Assembly: GCA_965208105.1 (NCBI GenBank)
Contig: OZ242318.1
Location: forward strand, 2,656,001 to 2,720,000
Reading direction: 5' to 3'
DNA length: 64,000 nucleotides
DNA from: Candidatus Latescibacterota bacterium
Lineage (GTDB): Bacteria; Latescibacterota; UBA2968; UBA8231
Every line of letters starts with the position of its first letter. The stretch's first letter is position 1. The position numbers were made by a program, and so were the translations under genes. Positions 2,233 through 52,300 of the stretch are shown in pieces. The notes beneath the pieces were generated by a model. It was not told the origin of the DNA and did not search any database. It saw nothing but the letters and a program-made list of their open reading frames with translations.

Positions 2233-2250
2233 CGTTCTTCCCCGCCTCTA

Positions 2251-2412
2251 GTGTCCCGTCGCAGAGACAGGTTGACGAAATTGGGCCGCCGAGGCGCCAG
2301 GCTCACAAGGCGCCAGAGCGAGTCGTACCAGTGGTGTTCGGCGCGTGAAGGCAACGCCGTGAGCCGGGATGGATCGGCGGAATGATGGCGACATATTTCT
2401 GCGACGGGACAC
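2251..2412. mobile_element. 162-bp MITE, copy 1 (IS630-like, TA target duplication)
   Basis: TIR gtgtcccgtcgcaga...tctgcgacgggacac flanked by TA (2249-2250) and TA (2413-2414). Near-identical to the copies at 47346 and 49194. Confidence 0.9.
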
Positions 2413-43939: not shown

Positions 43940-44908
43940 TCAGGAGAAATAAGGCGCAATGTTCTTCTCGATGCGATCGGAGATCGGAACTGTGTCCAAT
44001 TCGGAAGAAAAGGACTCGCCCGTGACGCGTTCGAACAGATCGATGTAGCGCGCCGCCACCTGGGTGCGGATTTCCTCATCCAGCTCGGGAATGTTGTCGT
44101 CGGAGATGTTGCGCTCTTTGAGCCAAAGGCGCAAGAACTCCTTGTCCAGGCTCTCGGGCTCCTCACCGCGGGAGTGGCGCTCCTCGTAGGAATCAGCCAC
44201 CCAGTAGCGCGATGAGTCCGGAGTGTGGATTTCGTCGGCGACCGTGACCCGGCCCTGCCGGTCGAGCCCCATTTCGTACTTTGTGTCCACCAGAATAAGG
44301 CCCTGCCGGGCGGCCAACTCCGTTCCACGCGCAAAGAGGGCCAGGGCGATCTCCTCGACCTGCCCCCAGGTGTCCCTGGACACCAGCCCGCGTTCGAGAA
44401 TCTGCTGGGGAGAAATGGACTCGTCGTGGTCCTCGGCCTTGGTGGTCGGCGTAATGATCGGCTCGTCGAAGGGCTGGTTCTTCACCATGCCGTCGGGCAG
44501 GTCGACGCCGCAAAATTTGCGTACTCCCTTGTTGTAGTTGGTCCACACCGAGGTATCGGTACTTCCGGTGAGGTATCGGCGCACGACGATCTCCACGGGG
44601 AGCATGTCGAGTTCCTCGGCAACGGTGACATTGGGGTCCGGAACCGCAATCACCTGGTTGGGAGCAATATCGGAGGTTTGGTCGAACCAGTAGCGGGCGA
44701 TGCGATTGAGGACCTGTCCCTTCAAGGGAATGGTTCCGAGAACGTGGTCAAAGGCACTCTGGCGATCGGTGGCGATGAGGATGCGTTTGTCCTCGAGCAG
44801 GTACATGTCTCTGACCTTGCCCTGCCTGTAGTACTGCTGCCAGGATTCGTAGCGGGCTTCAAGCAGGCAGTTGTCGAGCTGGGATTCGATTTGCTCCTTC
44901 GATATCAT
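43940..44908 (-). CDS. purC: SAICAR synthetase
   Basis: QGKVRDMY, TDRQSAFD, TPTTKA, LVDTKYE, DEIHTPDSSRYW and LDKE. Confidence 0.95.
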   Translation of the reverse strand: MISKEQIESQLDNCLLEARYESWQQYYRQGKVRDMYLLEDKRILIATDRQSAFDHVLGTIPLKGQVLNRIARYWFDQTSDIAPNQVIAVPDPNVTVAEELDMLPVEIVVRRYLTGSTDTSVWTNYNKGVRKFCGVDLPDGMVKNQPFDEPIITPTTKAEDHDESISPQQILERGLVSRDTWGQVEEIALALFARGTELAARQGLILVDTKYEMGLDRQGRVTVADEIHTPDSSRYWVADSYEERHSRGEEPESLDKEFLRLWLKERNISDDNIPELDEEIRTQVAARYIDLFERVTGESFSSELDTVPISDRIEKNIAPYFS

Positions 44909-45322
44909 GGTTCCGGGCTCCTTGTTGTGTTTGTGCAGCACGGTGCCGGCAACGGGAGGATTGCGGCTGTTCAACCTTGATTTTCCCGGTTAATATAGGA
45001 GATTTGCCGGCGAAATCCACTCGGCTGCTCCGGTTGCCTGCTGCCCTCTTCTGGCTTTCCGGCCCGCTGCCGAACCGAATTCACCCAACCCTGCCGGGAA
45101 GTCGGCAACGCGGCAGCCGGGCTGTTTTCGGCGCTTGATCAATCTGGGGCCGGTCCTATGTTTCCCGGAGTGACGCGTACCGAGCCCTGGAGTAGATTGC
45201 ATGGACCCATTGGAGGTGGCCGGTCCCCAATTGCGGCATGCGGTGACCGTGGGCCTGGCCGCAGGCTCGCCGCCCGCTGCTGGATCTCGAGCCAAACCCC
45301 GCAAGGATAAATGGAGGCATGA

Positions 45323-45796
45323 ATGTGGTCGCGGATTTCGGCGTCTGTGATGATCGCCGCTTTGTGGGGCTGCGCGGACAGGGCGGAAATCGGTGAAACC
45401 GCAGCCTATGTCGCCCGGGTGAAGAAACTCCACCATTACAACCAGGAGATCCAGACCCGCATCGACTACTTCGCCGACCTCCATCTCGATGCCGGAGAAG
45501 CAGAGATGGAATCCGTGCGCACCTTGATTGAAGATTACGCCAGGGAGGTGAAATTATTGGGGGGACCCGATGATCCGGCTCTCCGGAGAATTCACGAACT
45601 GTACGTCCGCTCCCTCGAGGAATTCCTGGATCCGGGCAAGGATCGATCGGAGGGACCTGGGCAGCGGCGCCGTGCAGTCGCCCCAGGGTTGCGGCAGTTG
45701 CGGCGGAATATCAGAGACCTGGTTCACCCGGGTTTAAGGGTGCTGCTGGCGCGACGCAACCTGGATGGGGACGAATACGATTTGCGATGGCCCTAG
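45323..45796 (+). CDS. Hypothetical lipoprotein
   Basis: RBS GGAGG and lipobox LWGC. Its stop TAG (45794-45796) is the MITE/IS insertion point. Confidence 0.65.
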   Translation: MWSRISASVMIAALWGCADRAEIGETAAYVARVKKLHHYNQEIQTRIDYFADLHLDAGEAEMESVRTLIEDYAREVKLLGGPDDPALRRIHELYVRSLEEFLDPGKDRSEGPGQRRRAVAPGLRQLRRNIRDLVHPGLRVLLARRNLDGDEYDLRWP

Positions 45797-45910
45797 ACCT
45801 TATGTATTGACGGAGATATGAAAGACCTCCTCCGATTTCGGTTTTCGGGGGTTATCTTTGGGAAAACGGAGTTCACCCAAAGACCTATCCCCAGCGAAAA
45901 GGAGGAGGCC

Positions 45911-47050
45911 ATGCGTAAATCTACGAAATTCGTCGCCTTGGACATACATAAAGATTCGATCACCGTCGCCCTGGCCGGTGAAGGCCTCCAAGGGCCAAAG
46001 CTGTATGGAACGATACCGTCTACGGGCGCTGCGTTGTCCAAGCTGGCGGGCCAACTGGCCCGTGGTGGGACCTCGTTGCGGTTTTGCTACGAGGCCGGAC
46101 CCTGCGGCTACGGCGTCTACCGTCAGCTCACAGCCCTGGGGCACGCCTGCACGGTGGTGGCGCCCTCGCTGATCCCGCGTCGGCCGGGCGACCGCATCAA
46201 GACCGACCGCCGCGATGCTGTGTCTCTGGTGCGGCTTTTCCAACACGGCGAGTTGACCCCCGTGTGGGTGCCCGACGAAGCGCAGGAGGCGATGCGCGAT
46301 CTGGAGCGCTGCCGGGAAGACTTCAAGCACGCCGAGCGCCGCGTGCGCCAGCGGCTGAACAGCTTCTTGCAGCGCCACGGCCGGATCTACTCCGGGCGCA
46401 GTCGCTGGACCCAAGCCCACTTTCGCTGGCTGCAGACCCAGCGCTTCGATCATCCGGCCCAGCAGATCGTCTTTCAGGAATACGTGGACGCGGTACAGGA
46501 AGCCCAAGGTCGGATCCAGGGGTTGGACCAGGCCCTGCAGCAGGCGCTGGAGGGATGGTCTTTGGAAGGGGAGACGCGGGCTATGAGGGCGCTGCGCGGG
46601 GTAGACACGCTCACCGCGGTTACGACCCTGGCCGAGTTGGGGGACCTCACCCGCTTTGACTCGCCGCGCCAACTGATGGCCTTCGTCGGTCTGGTCCCCA
46701 GCGAGCATTCCAGCGGCTCCCGCCAAAAGCGAGGGGCGATCACCAAGGCGGGCAACGCCCACGTGCGGCGCGTGCTGGTGGAAGCGGCCTGGTGCTATCG
46801 CTTTCCCGCCCGCAAGACGGCCGCCTTGCAACGACGCGCCGAACAGACCGCACCCCCCATACAGGCCATCGCCTGGAAGGCACAGAAACGCCTGTGTGGA
46901 CGCTATCGACGGCTGAGTGGGCGAGGGATGCCGAAGAACAAGGTGTGCTGCGCGATCGCGCGGGAGCTTTTGGGTTTCATCTGGGCCATCGCCTGGGAGC
47001 AGAAACGCCCCGGCCGCCTCGTGGCCAGGAGACCTCGGATCGCCGCCTGA
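45911..47050 (+). CDS. IS110 family DEDD recombinase/transposase (379 aa)
   Basis: RBS GGAGGAGG. ALDIHK, YEAG and KTDRRDA (DEDD), plus GLVPSEHSSG in the C-terminal Tnp domain. Intact frame. Confidence 0.95.
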   Translation: MRKSTKFVALDIHKDSITVALAGEGLQGPKLYGTIPSTGAALSKLAGQLARGGTSLRFCYEAGPCGYGVYRQLTALGHACTVVAPSLIPRRPGDRIKTDRRDAVSLVRLFQHGELTPVWVPDEAQEAMRDLERCREDFKHAERRVRQRLNSFLQRHGRIYSGRSRWTQAHFRWLQTQRFDHPAQQIVFQEYVDAVQEAQGRIQGLDQALQQALEGWSLEGETRAMRALRGVDTLTAVTTLAELGDLTRFDSPRQLMAFVGLVPSEHSSGSRQKRGAITKAGNAHVRRVLVEAAWCYRFPARKTAALQRRAEQTAPPIQAIAWKAQKRLCGRYRRLSGRGMPKNKVCCAIARELLGFIWAIAWEQKRPGRLVARRPRIAA

Positions 47051-47103
47051 TAAGCTCATCGTCTCAGAAGCCGGCATAGGACCTTTGCTCATGTAAATCG
47101 AAA

Positions 47104-47274
47104 CGGGACAGAAGGGACCGGTCAGGAGAATCCTCGAAGACACTATGAGGCGCCTTTTCAGGCTGACCCTCGACCATAGACTGAGGCCGCTCCGCGACGC
47201 ACCCAGGACAGGCGGTAGCCAACCCGCGAATATCAGTCGGATCAACCGTCGCTACAGCGTCCCTTCTGTTGCCG
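47104..47274 (+). ncRNA. Putative bridge RNA / seekRNA of the IS1111-type element
   Basis: An 11-bp closing stem (47108-47118 with 47259-47269) encloses two internal-loop hairpins. The loops contain GACACTA (reverse complement of target TAGTGTC), CCATAG (vs target CCCTAG) and ATATCAG (donor end). Confidence 0.72.
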
Positions 47275-47345
47275 AACAAACTCATGCAAAGATAACACCC
47301 GAAATGACCACCCCGGAGGGGGTTGACAACCGTCAATACATATCA

Positions 47346-47507
47346 GTGTCCCGTCGCAGAGATAGGTTGACGCAATTGGGCCGCCGAGGCGCCCGGCTCA
47401 CAAGGCGCCTGAGCGAGTCGTACCAGTGGTGTACGGCGAGTGAAGGCAACGCCGTGAGCCGGGATGGATCGGGGGAATAATGGCGACATATCTCTGCGAC
47501 GGGACAC
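47346..47507. mobile_element. 162-bp MITE, copy 2 (left TA junction interrupted by the IS110 element)
   Basis: 19-bp perfect TIR gtgtcccgtcgcagagata. Same length and orientation as copy 1. The right flank reads TG instead of TA. Confidence 0.9.
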
Positions 47508-47517
47508 TGGCAGATTA

Positions 47518-48999
47518 TCAGGGAAGCAGGCGAGGTCGGATGAGAGGTACCCGGAATTGCAGTGCGGACATGAGACCGCTATAGAGAAAGCCGGCGTGGA
47601 AGAGCAGAAGGAAAGGCAGACCCAGGTAGAGATCGACCGACCATGCGCTGTAGAGAATGAAGCCGAAGTAGACGGCCATGGACAACTCGAGGAAGGCCTG
47701 CGCGTTTCTGCGAGCGCTGTATTTCCATTTCCTGACCGAGCTGTCCCGGTGAACCACTCCGTATTTGGGAGTGCGTCTGAAATCGCTCTTATGGCCGATC
47801 AACCCCTCGACCACCGCCCGGGAGTTGTTGATGCACAGGCTCATCCCCAGGGCCATCAGCAAGGGCAGATACTTGATCTGTGCCTTCCAGTTGGAATAGA
47901 GAGCCCGCTGTGAGGCAATGTAAAAACCGGAGATGGCCATGGTCGCCAGGGTGAACAGGGGCAGGTCGACGATGAGCAAGCGCTCCCACCCCAGGTGTGA
48001 ACGGATATTCACCACCGGCAGGCTCAGCAGGGCCACCAGGAGCATCAGGATATAGCAGATGTTGGTGGTGAGATGGAAAGTCGCCTCGATTTTCACCCTG
48101 AGGGGGAAGCTGCTGCCCCAGATTCGCGGCAGCAGCTTCTTTGCCGTCTGCGCCGAACCTTTGGTCCAGCGGTGCTGCTGCAACTTGAAGGCGTTTATTT
48201 CGACGGGGATTTCTCCAGGAACCGAAATCTGGGGCACATAGAGAAACCTCCAGCCTGCCAGTTGGGCCCTGTAGCTCAGGTCCAGGTCCTCGGTAAGGGT
48301 ATCGTGCTGCCAACCTCCGGCATCGACGATTGCCCGCTTCCTCCAGATGCCGGCGGTGCCGTTGAAATTGAAGAAGCGACCGGAGCGGTTGCGCGCCGTG
48401 TGCTCGATCATGAAGTGGCCGTCGAGGAAAATCGATTGTATTCGGGTCAGCAGGGAGTAACGGCGGTTGAGATGGCTCCAGCGCATCTGCACCATCCCGA
48501 TCCGGGGATCGGTGAAATAGTGGATGACCTCGTGCAGAATCCCGGGTGGAGGAACGAAGTCGGCGTCGAAGATGAGAACAAACTCCCCCTTGGCCTTTTC
48601 AAGGCCGGCCGCCAGGGCTCCGGCCTTGAAACCCCTGCGCGAACCGCGGTTCATGTACTCGATGTCGAGCCCCTTGCCGGCGAGGCGGCGGGTAATTTCG
48701 CGGGCCTTCTCACAGGTCTCGTCCCGGGAGTCGTCCAGGACCTGTATTTGCAAGCGGTCGCTGGGATATTCGATTCTGCTTACCGCTCCAAGAAGTCGTT
48801 CTACGACGTGAAGCTCGTTGTAGAGGGGAAGTTGAATGGTGACGGAGGGCAGGGTTTCGAAGCGCTCGCGGGGAAGAACGGGAGCGTCCTGGTGCTTGTA
48901 GAACAAGTGCAGAATCAGGTAGCGGTGGGCACCATAAATAGATAGCAGGCCTATCACCATGCAGTATAGGATCAGGATGGAACTTTCCCAGAATGTCAT
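47518..48999 (-). CDS. Processive GT2 glycosyltransferase (cellulose-synthase-like)
   Basis: QVLDDS, FKAGAL, FDADF, TEDLD and QQHRW (D,D,D,QxxRW) plus TM helices. Confidence 0.9.
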   Translation of the reverse strand: MTFWESSILILYCMVIGLLSIYGAHRYLILHLFYKHQDAPVLPRERFETLPSVTIQLPLYNELHVVERLLGAVSRIEYPSDRLQIQVLDDSRDETCEKAREITRRLAGKGLDIEYMNRGSRRGFKAGALAAGLEKAKGEFVLIFDADFVPPPGILHEVIHYFTDPRIGMVQMRWSHLNRRYSLLTRIQSIFLDGHFMIEHTARNRSGRFFNFNGTAGIWRKRAIVDAGGWQHDTLTEDLDLSYRAQLAGWRFLYVPQISVPGEIPVEINAFKLQQHRWTKGSAQTAKKLLPRIWGSSFPLRVKIEATFHLTTNICYILMLLVALLSLPVVNIRSHLGWERLLIVDLPLFTLATMAISGFYIASQRALYSNWKAQIKYLPLLMALGMSLCINNSRAVVEGLIGHKSDFRRTPKYGVVHRDSSVRKWKYSARRNAQAFLELSMAVYFGFILYSAWSVDLYLGLPFLLLFHAGFLYSGLMSALQFRVPLIRPRLLP

Positions 49000-49193
49000 C
49001 TTTCTATCATGGGAAATGAGGTGTGGATAGTGTCCCCTCCCGATACTTCCATGCGGCTACCCGGCAACGGCATCCTGACCGGAGGCGCGGGGCTGATCCG
49101 CCCGAATTCATCAACGCGGCTCCTCCGCGCGCCCCGCATGCCTGGCGTCTTCAGCCGGTCAGATTCTGCAGCTATTCCCGAGGCGACGCCCTA

Positions 49194-49355
49194 GTGTCCC
49201 GTCGCAGAGATATGTTGCCATTATTCCGCCGATCCATCCCGGCTCACGGCGTTGCCTTCCCTCGCCGTACACCACTGGTACGACTCGCTCAGGCGCCTTG
49301 TGAGCCGGGCGCCTCGGCGGCCCAATTGCGTCAACCTATCTCTGCGACGGGACAC
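49194..49355. mobile_element. 162-bp MITE, copy 3 (inverted relative to copies 1 and 2)
   Basis: 19-bp perfect TIR flanked by TA (49192-93) and TA (49356-57). The reconstructed empty site is CTAG. Confidence 0.92.
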
Positions 49356-52300
49356 TAGGCGGCGCGGCCGCAGCATTTTTTGAACTTCTTTCCGCTGCCA
49401 CAGGGACACGGCGCGTTGCGGCCCACTTTGGGCTGGGCACGCACCGGTTGGCGCACGGCCGGTGCCTCCCGGGCGCTGCCCGACGCGGAGATCCGGCTAT
49501 CGTTGCGGGCGGTGCCAGGGCTGGCCGGAGTGCTGCCGAAACCCAGGTTTGTAGCCTCGCGATGGGTGGAGCTGTAGTCACCGGCGGGAATCTGGCGCTG
49601 GCCCAGGTCAGTGGCATCAAAATCGATACGCAGCCTGAAGATGTGCCGCAGGGTCTCCTGCTCGATCCTGGCGATCAGACTTTCGAAGAGATCGTATGCC
49701 CCTTTCTTGTACTCGATCAGGGGGTTTTTGCCCCCCACGCCGGCAAAGCCCACACCCTCCTTGAGCTCGTCCATTTCATACAGGTGCTCCTGCCAGCATG
49801 TATCGATGGTGTGGAGCACGATGGCCTTCTCCACCTCCCGGAAAGAATCCTCGCCGACCAGATCCAGGCGCCGGCGGTAGGACTCCTGCACGCTGTCGTT
49901 GAGTTGGCTGCGCAACTCGTCGTATGAGATGTTGGCGCGCTCTTCCTCCGCCGTGGGAAGCCCCATGAAAAAGGTATTGCCGATTTCGCCCTGCAGGCCC
50001 TTCCAGTCCCACTCTTCCGAGTAGACCTGTGGATCCACATATCCCTCCAGGCACGAGTCTACCGTGGACTCAACCATCTCGGCGACCTGTTCGGCGGCGG
50101 TATCGTGCTCCAGGAGATCGTTGCGGCGGTTGTAGATGACCTGGCGCTGCTGGTTCATTACGTCGTCGTAGTCGAGCAGGTGCTTGCGGATCTCGAAATT
50201 TCGCGCCTCGACCTTTTTTTGCGCCCGCTGGATGGACCTCGTGACCATCGAGTGCTCGATTACCTCCCCCTCCTCCGCCCCCAGGCGGTCCATGACCGAG
50301 GCGATGCGTTCGGATCCGAAGAGGCGCATCAGATCGTCCTCGAGAGAAAGAAAAAAGCGCGAGGAACCCGGATCGCCCTGGCGGCCGGCTCGACCGCGCA
50401 GCTGTCGGTCGATGCGGCGAGCGTCATGGCGCTCGGTACCGATCACCTGCAAGCCGCACGGGTTCTCAACCAGGTGAGCGCGCAGGGTCTCGCCCGAGGG
50501 CATGCGGTCGTCCAGGGTAAGCGCCGACTCGAGCAGTTGTCGGTCCACCCGGACCACCGAAGGATCCAGCTTGATGTCGGTTCCGCGGCCGGCCATGTTG
50601 GTGGCAATGGTCACGGTGCCGGGTTGTCCGGCCTGGGTGATGATCTGGGCCTCCTTTTCGTGGTAGCGGGCATTGAGGAGCTGATGTTTAACCCCGTTGC
50701 GCGTCAGCATGCGGCTTAGAAGCTCGGAGACCTCCACCGAAATGGTGCCTACGAGTACGGGCAGCTTCAGGTCATGCAGCCGGCCGATCTCGTCGATGAT
50801 CGCATTGTACTTCTCGCGCTTGGTGCGGTAAATCAGATCGTCCATGTCCACCCGGCGGACGGGCCGATTGGTCGGCACGACCACCACTTCAAGATTGTAG
50901 ATCTTGTAGAGCTCCTCCGATTCCGTTTCGGCAGTCCCGGTCATTCCGGCCAGCTTGTCGTACATGCGGAAGAGGTTCTGCAGGGTAATGGTGGCGATTG
51001 TCTGGGTTTCCTGCTGGATCTTGACCCCTTCCTTTGCCTCCAGGGCCTGGTGCAGGCCATCGGAAAAACGCCGCCCCGGCTGCGGCCGGCCGGTCGACTC
51101 GTCGACGATCACCACCCGACCGTCATCCGTGACCATGTACTGGACGTCTTTTTCAAAGAGGGTGTAGGCGCGCATGAGCTGGTTGATATTGTGAACCGCC
51201 TCGCTTTTCCGGGCGTGGTTGCGATAGGCTTCCTCCTCCCCGAGCGCGCGCTCGTCAGGGTCAAGGTTCTCGTCGCGCTGAATTCGGTCGATGTCAGCGC
51301 TGATGTCGGGAAGTATGAAGAGGGCCTGTTCGTCGGGTGAGAGCAAATCCCGCCCCTTGTCGGTCAGATCGATGGTATGGCTCTTCTCGTCGACCACGTA
51401 GTAAAGGGCCTCGTCGAGCTCGCCCATGCGCTTGTCGCGCATGTAGTCGGCTTCCACCCTGGCAATCAGGCGCTTGGTGCCCTCCCCCTGCAGGATCTTC
51501 ATCAGGCGGCGGTTCTTCGGAGCACCGCGCACCGCCCGGAAAAGGTCAATCCCCACATCGTAGTCGTCCTCCTCCTCCAGGCGCTTTTTCTCCGTGTTGG
51601 CGATGACCCTGTTCACCAGGGAAGTCTGGGCACGCAGGAGCTTCTGTACAAGAGGCTTGAGGTCGCCGTAGCGGTTGCTCGATTCCGGCACCGGACCGGA
51701 GATAATCAGGGGGGTGCGCGCATCGTCGATCAGGTTGGAGTCCGCCTCGTCAATGATGGCGAAGTTGAACTCCCGCTGCATTATGTCCTGGCGCCGGGAG
51801 GCCATGTTGTCGTAGAGATAGTGGAAGCCTACCTGGTCCTTGGTGGCGTAGACGATGTCGGCGGCATAGGCTTCCTTCCAGGTAGACTCCTCCCAGGAGT
51901 ACTCCTCGGGGACACCTTCCGGCACGGGCAGGTAATAAGCTTCGGCACCCCCCGTCTGGTGCGCGTCCTGGATAATTCCAACGGACATGCCAAGGAAGTT
52001 GTAGATCGGCCCCATCCACATGGCGTCGCGCTTGGCCAGGTAATTGTTGTGAGTGACCAGGTGGACACCGCGTCCGGACAGGGCATTGAGGTATAGTGGC
52101 ATGGTGGCCACCAGGGTCTTGCCCTCGCCGGTGGCCATCTCGGCTATCTTCCCCTGGTGCAAAACCTCGCCGCCGAAAAGCTGAACGTCGTAGGGGACCA
52201 TTTCCCACTCCATCGTTTCACCCATCACATCCCACTTCCGCCCCAGCAGCCGGCGGCATGTCTCGCGCACGAGGGCGAAGGTGCTGGGCAGAATTTCGTC

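Follow-up and report, generated by a model that had tools for sequence, protein, structure and literature searches.

What brings an insertion sequence (IS) to the outermost bases of another mobile element? The question is raised by a 64,000-nt stretch of the genome of a Candidatus Latescibacterota bacterium (contig OZ242318.1, positions 2,656,001 to 2,720,000; below, the window), in which an IS lies exactly at the end of a 162-bp miniature inverted-repeat transposable element (MITE). We consider it very likely that this is an IS1111-type IS whose own 3' RNA directs its transposase to (C)TAG|TGTC, the junction between the target-site duplication (TSD) and the terminal inverted repeat (TIR) of the MITE. 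The evidence observed is the anatomy of the element, the distribution and orientation of its copies, a conserved RNA fold and guide-target covariation.

The IS is inserted at the TSD/TIR boundary of a MITE

The left junction reads CCCTAG|ACCTTATGTATTGACGG (45791–45813) and the right junction CCGTCAATACATATCAG|TGTCCCGTCGC (47330–47357), with AG at both, as a preliminary description of the locus had reported. Excision of 45797–47346 leaves CCCTAGTGTCCCGTCGCAGAGA, every letter of which is that of the end of MITE copy 3 from 49189; the same description had already noted that the deletion restores this intact end. The insertion point lies between TA-G and TGTC, at the TSD/TIR boundary of the 162-bp MITE. 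The window holds three copies of the MITE (2251–2412, 47346–47507 and 49194–49355), and the features concerned are as follows.

45797–47346, plus strand: IS, 1550 bp with one copy of the AG core counted
45795–45796, plus strand: AG core at the left junction; the second copy is at 47345–47346
45801–45813, plus strand: left subterminal inverted repeat TATGTATTGACGG, complementary at 13/13 positions to 47330–47342
47330–47342, plus strand: right subterminal inverted repeat CCGTCAATACATA, a perfect 13-bp pair with the left repeat
45911–47050, plus strand: DEDD transposase, 379 amino acids, the sole long open reading frame (ORF) of the IS
47346–47507, plus strand: occupied MITE copy, 162 bp, with TIRs of about 21 bp; its first G is common with the IS core
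2251–2412, unstranded: unoccupied MITE copy 1, flanks CTA ... TAA
49194–49355, unstranded: unoccupied MITE copy 3, the model of the empty site, flanks CTA ... TAG

Under a convention quoted in PMC11187229, the IS could equally be written 45795–47344. With the subterminal repeats taken as the 12-bp ATGTATTGACGG/CCGTCAATACAT, the terminal extensions are AGACCTT (7) on the left and ATC (3) on the right, a count that assigns the ambiguous AG to the left end by convention. Within the left repeat, ATGTATTGAC is kept in relatives. The non-coding DNA of the IS is unevenly divided, with 296 bp downstream of the transposase gene (47051–47346) and 114 bp upstream.

Copies across the genome occupy MITE ends in one orientation

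The genome is one contig of 4.85 Mb, in which copies were counted when both ends were present. There are 12 such IS copies, 11 of them full length (1548–1550 bp, 96–100% identity) and one with a 120-bp internal deletion; all have the same ends, and a few fragments occur besides. AG is found at both junctions in 12/12 copies and the junction reads CTAG|TG in 12/12. The site of 10/12 is CTAG|TGTCCCGTxGCAGA of the same MITE family, and in 10/10 of these insertions the IS right end points toward the MITE. Both MITE ends are used, one end type by seven IS copies and the other by three. The flanks of the other copies thus bear out the proposal of the preliminary description that the IS is aimed at the ends of a MITE family in a fixed orientation. 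The 11th copy, at CTAG|TGTTGTGTCCTGC (also given as CTAG|TGTTGTGTCC), occupies the tip of another MITE, 119 bp long, whose inverted repeat has only TAGTGT in common with the first.

The adjacency of IS and MITE in 10/12 copies would also be found if the two were one composite unit, or if the MITE had inserted beside the IS. We regard this as scarcely credible. The genome holds 198 recognizable MITE ends, of which 10 are occupied and 188 carry no IS; the IS is found at either MITE end (7 and 3 copies) and also with another MITE; and the MITE's usual CTA lies beyond the far side of the IS, with CA rather than TA on the MITE side. This last arrangement indicates that the IS split a pre-existing TA-G|TGTC junction.

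A predicted guide RNA covaries with the target

The non-coding region downstream of the transposase gene is predicted to encode an RNA with two loops, the parts of which are listed below.

47108–47269, plus strand: predicted seekRNA/bridge-like RNA, with outer stem 47108–47118 / 47259–47269
47138–47145, plus strand: guide 1 (AGACA + CTA), on the 5' strand of the first internal loop; complement of the target top strand TAG+TGTC
47174–47179, plus strand: guide 2 (CCA + TAG), on the 3' strand of the same loop; same as the target top strand left of the cut
47194–47252, plus strand: second stem-loop, stem GCGACG (47194–47199) / CGTCGC (47247–47252); presumed donor-binding loop

The first RNA domain is closed by GGAG/CTCC and CCTC/GAGG. 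In an RNAalifold analysis of 32 sequences, 34 pairs were recovered, 14 of them with compensatory changes, and at six outer-stem pairs both sides were changed in 3 to 11 sequences each. An alignment of the window copy's non-coding region with its counterparts from relatives in three other assemblies (G001, of the same genus, G016 and G030) revealed a conserved scaffold with a few variable patches. The top-strand complement (47138–47145) lies 5' of the bottom-strand match (47174–47179) and TAG is present in both; in the IS1111-family seekRNAs described in PMC11187229, the top-strand complement is likewise 5' of the bottom-strand match, with the two overlapping at the cut.

Guide 1 is unchanged across 12/12 genome copies. 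Its invariance indicates that the copy on the 119-bp MITE, where the changed base would pair with guide 1 as a G.T wobble, is a tolerated near-match and not the product of a retuned guide. Guide 2 reads CTC+TAG in 9/12 copies and CCA+TAG in the window copy; its TAG is constant, and the preceding base is mostly the C of CTAG.

Relatives were drawn from 233 stretches encoding related transposases, of which 80 loci (57–85% amino acid identity) were kept. Their record titles name Latescibacterota, Gemmatimonadota, Gammaproteobacteria, Nitrospirota, Bryobacterales, Desulfobulbaceae and others. In the G001 relative, the loop GCGCACTA stands against the target TAGTGTGC, and in the G030 relative, CGACACTA stands against TAGTGTCG. 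For the covariation set, guide 1 was recognized in 44 of 84 right-end records, which gave 33 unique guide/flank pairs. Between the variable bases of guide 1 and the five bases right of the cut, a mean of 4.21/5 were Watson-Crick paired (17 pairs at 5/5, 10 at 4/5, 4 at 3/5 and 2 at 1/5), compared with 1.50 +/- 0.19, and a maximum of 2.18, in 2000 shuffles of the guide/flank pairings. The earlier suggestion that the element is programmed to its target was therefore upheld, in that a segment complementary to TAGTGTC is present and covaries with the target in relatives.

These data bear on the possibility that the transposase protein reads the MITE inverted repeat or hairpin directly and that the complementarity of the 3' region is unused. 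The MITE is a strong palindrome with a hairpin-like alignment, as such recognition would favor. Even so, we judge it very improbable, because the five variable guide bases covary with the flank in 33 pairs far above the shuffles, the transposase clade keeps one RNA fold, and the same IS is found on another MITE with an inverted repeat alike only in TAGTGT; for other IS1111 members, dependence on the seekRNA has been demonstrated experimentally (PMC11187229).

The second loop matches the IS itself. ATATCAG (47230–47236) on its 3' strand is the final 7 nt of the IS right end, and the corresponding heptamer equals the right end in 22/26 unique relatives and matches it at 6/7 positions in the other four. 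In the single covarying case (L055), loop and right end both read ATAACAG. Complementarity of the 5' strand of this loop to the IS left end is partial, at 4–6 of 6 bases by eye. Two loci of one Gammaproteobacteria assembly (L061 and L063) each have two right ends 77 bp apart, the first ending in ATATCAA and the second in ATATCAG, as if the IS end beside the MITE target had been duplicated in tandem or in part.

Three other readings of the region were discarded. The longest target match, ACGGGACA (47103–47110), is not a guide; it is kept in relatives with other targets and forms the outer stem with 47259–47269. CCGTCGC (47246–47252) was rejected as a guide since it is the stem of the second loop, and a "handshake" reading of the bases after the guide-2 TAG was dropped, these being AC in the window copy and AT in 10/12 copies. 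No Rfam family was found for the 3' region, and nearby there was only a spurious MIR918 match on the MITE palindrome, at 28 bits against a gathering threshold of 268.

Relatives lie on other TA-flanked elements and the MITE arrived before the IS

At the orthologous site in G001, the flanking genes are 68 bp apart, compared with approximately 1770 bp in the window, and neither MITE nor IS is present; both are therefore insertions. Because the IS separates the MITE from its CTA flank, the MITE arrived first.

The relatives in G001, G016 and G030 are also on TA(G)-flanked inverted-repeat elements. At least 13 relative loci in nine other assemblies show an inverted partner of their right flank 49–1162 bp downstream, followed by TAG, which indicates that the relative sits on the tip of a TA-flanked inverted-repeat element; an inverted partner of any kind was present in 21/78 right-flank records, 8 of which were not counted. 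In one relative (L041) the element targeted is a complete IS of IS630 type that encodes a DDE_3 domain (E 2.8e-22). This was the one case of IS630-like coding sequence among 74 right flanks of relatives, whose length of 1.1 kb tells little about the rest.

Contigs of four public sequencing runs were compared with window positions 44800–48400. A 1407-nt contig of run X1 crosses the left flank into the IS (44800–45820) with zero differences, and a 1997-nt contig of run X4, from another study, runs from the IS right end into a MITE of opposite orientation, which fits the use of both MITE ends. Contigs of X3 and X4 (two further studies, one labelled as a sponge metagenome) cover single-copy flanks with 0–5 differences, so the organism or a close relative is present in more than one data set.

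The IS and MITE are flanked by a family-2 glycosyltransferase gene (47518–48999, minus strand; PF13641, E 2.4e-27). On the other side of the IS (44990–45796) are two ORFs without Pfam matches, one of which (45323–45796) has as its stop codon the TAG that is part of the IS target and overlaps the CTAG site of the MITE.

Structural features of the IS fit the IS1111 family

The transposase matches PF02371 (E 1.6e-22) and PF01548 (E 1.3e-12) and scores 262 bits with NCBIfam NF033542 ("IS110 family RNA-guided transposase"), for which the cut-off is 140. At residue 260 it carries GLVPSEHSSG, which fits the IS1111-family motif GL-P----S(t)G, and the ORF is intact in 10/12 genome copies. [quoted passage not shown]

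Protein comparison for family placement took in IS5075/IS4321, IS621, ISCro4 and ISEc45. The nearest IS named in an annotation is ISEc45, at 48.2% identity over 94% of the transposase; IS621 and ISCro4 (PDB: 8wt6, 9t56) match residues 221–293 only, at 27–38 bits. Taken from sequence, the features support an intact element of IS1111 type, with its inverted repeats subterminal and its non-coding RNA region 3' of the gene; this is the type to which the preliminary description had assigned it. The element is real and well defined, and very probably active.

The MITE offers many free ends and keeps its inverted repeat beside the IS

Four unoccupied TAGTGTC/GACACTA sites had been listed for the window (2249–2255, 2408–2414, 49192–49198 and 49351–49357), and all were found at these positions; site 2408–2414 has TTAG, not CTAG. 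Across the genome, a CTA flank is present at 10/10 occupied MITE ends and at 118/188 free ends. Of the 188 free ends, 155 have C at position -3, 164 have T at -2 and 163 have A at -1, base counts outside the inverted repeat which indicate that the MITE sits in CTAG with a TA duplication. We take this to be the insertion habit of IS630 elements, and the MITE, which is small, non-coding and present in many copies, is probably of IS630 type. The earlier label "IS630-like" derives from the TA/CTAG flanks and should be read more softly. An autonomous partner with the same inverted repeat and a DDE_3 transposase was not found; genome-wide there was no inverted-repeat pair 300–3500 bp apart besides neighboring MITEs.

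The earlier view that the IS "probably immobilises" the MITE finds no support in the sequence. The IS ends in ...CAG, so that the right junction CAG|TGTCCC rebuilds the full inverted repeat GTGTCCCG...; the inverted repeat on the occupied side is complete and the change of the flanking TA to CA is the sole loss. The far flank of the occupied copy (47508–47509) is TG, not TA, which makes that end a poor target for a second IS.

Several TA/CTAG-flanked element families are present in the genome. One is a 1162-bp IS630-type IS with eight full-length and two truncated copies (for example L127, G000:C1:2748956-2750317), which has HTH_32 and DDE_3 domains, a transposase split over two frames and the inverted repeat GTGCKCTGTTAA, different from that of the MITE. 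Other TA-element families with ends starting CTAGTGC... offer 33, 20 and 9 free sites, the free ends of two of these starting CTAGTGCCTGCTTG (33) and CTAGTGCGCTGTTA (20); none of the 12 two-ended IS copies occupies such an end. MITE positions 37–133 alone match approximately 18 loci at about 88%, so the MITE interior is common to another element.

Several observations weigh against guided targeting of MITE ends

On the target side, only about 8 nt are specified, (C)TAG+TGTC, of which the final C may be T, and the copy distribution shows no sign of sensing further into the MITE than this word. Free CTAGTGTC sites in the genome number 72 in MITE ends and 15 elsewhere (72/87 = 83% in MITE ends), and free TAGTGTC sites number 92 and 87, respectively. 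By our own estimate, the occupancy of CTAGTGTC, 10/82 in MITE ends versus 0/15 elsewhere, is a non-significant difference. The three variable bases of guide 2 before TAG fit the real left flanks poorly, a mismatch to be expected if the left flank is arbitrary host DNA beside the MITE.

These points would suit an incidental match, in which the IS recognizes the short word CTAGTGTC, here mostly MITE-borne, without any evolutionary tuning to MITEs: little sequence is specified, 15/87 free sites lie outside MITE ends and the left-arm guide mismatches its flanks. We think this improbable, although less so than the alternatives considered above. Differently tuned relatives are found on other TA(G)-flanked inverted-repeat elements (the 13 loci in nine assemblies together with those in G001, G016 and G030), the target of one relative is a full IS630-type IS, and TAG is constant in 33/33 recognized guides, although the search pattern favored TAG.

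On the side of the guide and the protein, the guide 1 search pattern missed 40/84 records, which were excluded from the covariation count, and the transposase has 379 amino acids versus the stated IS1111 range of 330–350, with approximately 25% identity (24.6–24.9%) to IS5075/IS4321 over residues 65–365 (E 1e-8). No contig of the four public runs bridges the empty site or the circle junction, contigs breaking at repeats. Contigs of an RNA-library run (X16) cover parts of the IS, including 47054–47155, and cannot show transcription; none covers single-copy flanks, and given the 12 copies of the IS and possible DNA carry-over they are a faint hint of transcription at best. The computed circle junction had no sigma-70-like promoter (>=4/6 + 4/6 matches, 16–19 spacing) in a simple scan whose consensus may not be that of the host.

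Copy 12 (genome 3964968–3966516) is a hybrid that simple insertion fails to explain. Its right flank is the interior of the 1162-bp IS630-type IS, which reads CAACCAG|TGGTCGC in nine intact copies and here has lost its first ~417 bp; the left flank is unrelated unique DNA ending in GCGCTAG. We read this copy as a secondary rearrangement, which could have arisen by IS-mediated deletion, through a half-match event or by two copies recombining.

Proposed mechanism and wider implications

Under guided targeting, the transposase would be directed by RNA from the non-coding region at the 3' side of the IS itself. [quoted passage not shown] Exchange would take place at the AG core of the target (C)TAG|TGTC, which would be composed of the TA duplication and the first inverted-repeat bases (GTGTC...) of the 162-bp MITE, and every new MITE in CTAG would make two landing sites, one per end, in opposite orientations. 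The RNA is presumably made and bound, and recombination probably proceeds via a circle at the AG core.

A broader reading is plausible, although we lean slightly away from it: that these are a clade of IS1111-type elements, spread over several phyla by record title, that act as a transposon of transposons in which only the 5-nt right guide is retuned. The TAG fixed in both guides fits the TA duplication and first G of IS630/Tc1-type inverted repeats, and most relative loci have too little flank to tell. If true, the 5-nt right guide would be retuned to any family of such MITEs or ISs that has come to fill a given host genome. The relation of IS and MITE may also be reciprocal, given that guide 2 DNA reads (C)TAG, the MITE's preferred target, and that an older copy was split there. 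That copy, diverged and on the minus strand (G000:C1:3999575-4001432), is interrupted by a MITE exactly at the TA within its guide-2 sequence, reading ..CGAAGT|TA|GACCGAGG, and the MITE later took a new IS at its far end.

Two truncated IS copies of approximately 170 bp (G000:C1:3931342-3931508 and L039, G030:C2:3730528-3730696) start at or beside the guide-2 TAG and extend to the normal right end; the first abuts a third family of TA elements, at an end of the type TGCCTGCTTG... Both may simply be remnants or, by analogy with ISPpu9/MITEPpu9, in which a sub-element is mobilized from a pseudo left end (PMC12288879), a sub-element of the same kind.

The clade provides a natural data set on guide retuning, with one RNA scaffold, a constant TAG and five bases tracking the target in 33 pairs. 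Natural targeting here appears to rely on the core and one arm only, about 8 nt, which fits the "half-match" behavior reported for IS621 (bioRxiv 10.64898/2026.08.31.748434). More generally, the case illustrates how a selfish element can exploit a second one, whose many copies offer it places to land that lie outside genes.

Comparison with known systems

A search of the literature returned no description of IS630-type ends as IS1111 targets; published target logos for >300 IS may already show members at TA-element ends. The closest parallels are as follows. IS4321 and IS5075 insert in Tn21-family inverted repeats (by a title cited in PMC11187229) and, like the window IS, have subterminal inverted repeats, a 3' non-coding region, one orientation and a fixed position in another element's terminal inverted repeat. 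Their target, however, is a 38-bp Tn3-family inverted repeat, whereas here it is the TSD/TIR junction of a small TA-duplicating MITE; the transposase of the window IS is only 24.6–24.9% identical over residues 65–365, and the organism that carries it is an uncultured environmental bacterium.

IS1111 of Coxiella burnetii has 20/21 copies in the MITE QMITE2 (PMC5896051). As with the window IS, nearly all copies are in one MITE family, and the strain comparisons in that report show unoccupied MITE copies. The target described there is a GTAG palindrome 10–20 bp inside the MITE, and QMITE2 has variable direct repeats of 7–11 bp, unlike the TA-duplicating MITE here; in the window, the IS cuts right at the first base of the inverted repeat, and the TA duplication is part of the target.

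The seekRNAs of ISEc11/ISXne4, ISKpn4 and ISPa11 likewise derive from the 3' non-coding region, place the top-strand complement 5' of the bottom-strand match with overlap at the cut, and show natural retargeting through guide changes only, as set out in PMC11187229. They differ in sequence and target, and the guides of the window clade, known here from sequence alone, keep TAG constant with 5 (+3) variable bases. ISPa11 and ISPpu9 target REPs (PMC11187229; PMC12288879). ISEc45, in an E. coli plasmid copy, reads TAG at the left junction and likewise has subterminal inverted repeats, of ~11 bp, with non-coding DNA 3' of the gene, but its subterminal repeats and non-coding region have diverged from those of the window IS.

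IS621 and ISCro4, of the IS110 group, share the two-loop guide RNA logic and a 2-nt core common to donor and target; unlike the window IS, they have their RNA 5' of the gene and no subterminal inverted repeats, and only the C-terminal domain matches. The mechanism proposed here is thus a known one. With the window IS, the mobile elements targeted by IS1111 members would come to include TA-duplicating MITEs, at their TSD/TIR junction; it is a clear further instance of behavior that the family is known to show.

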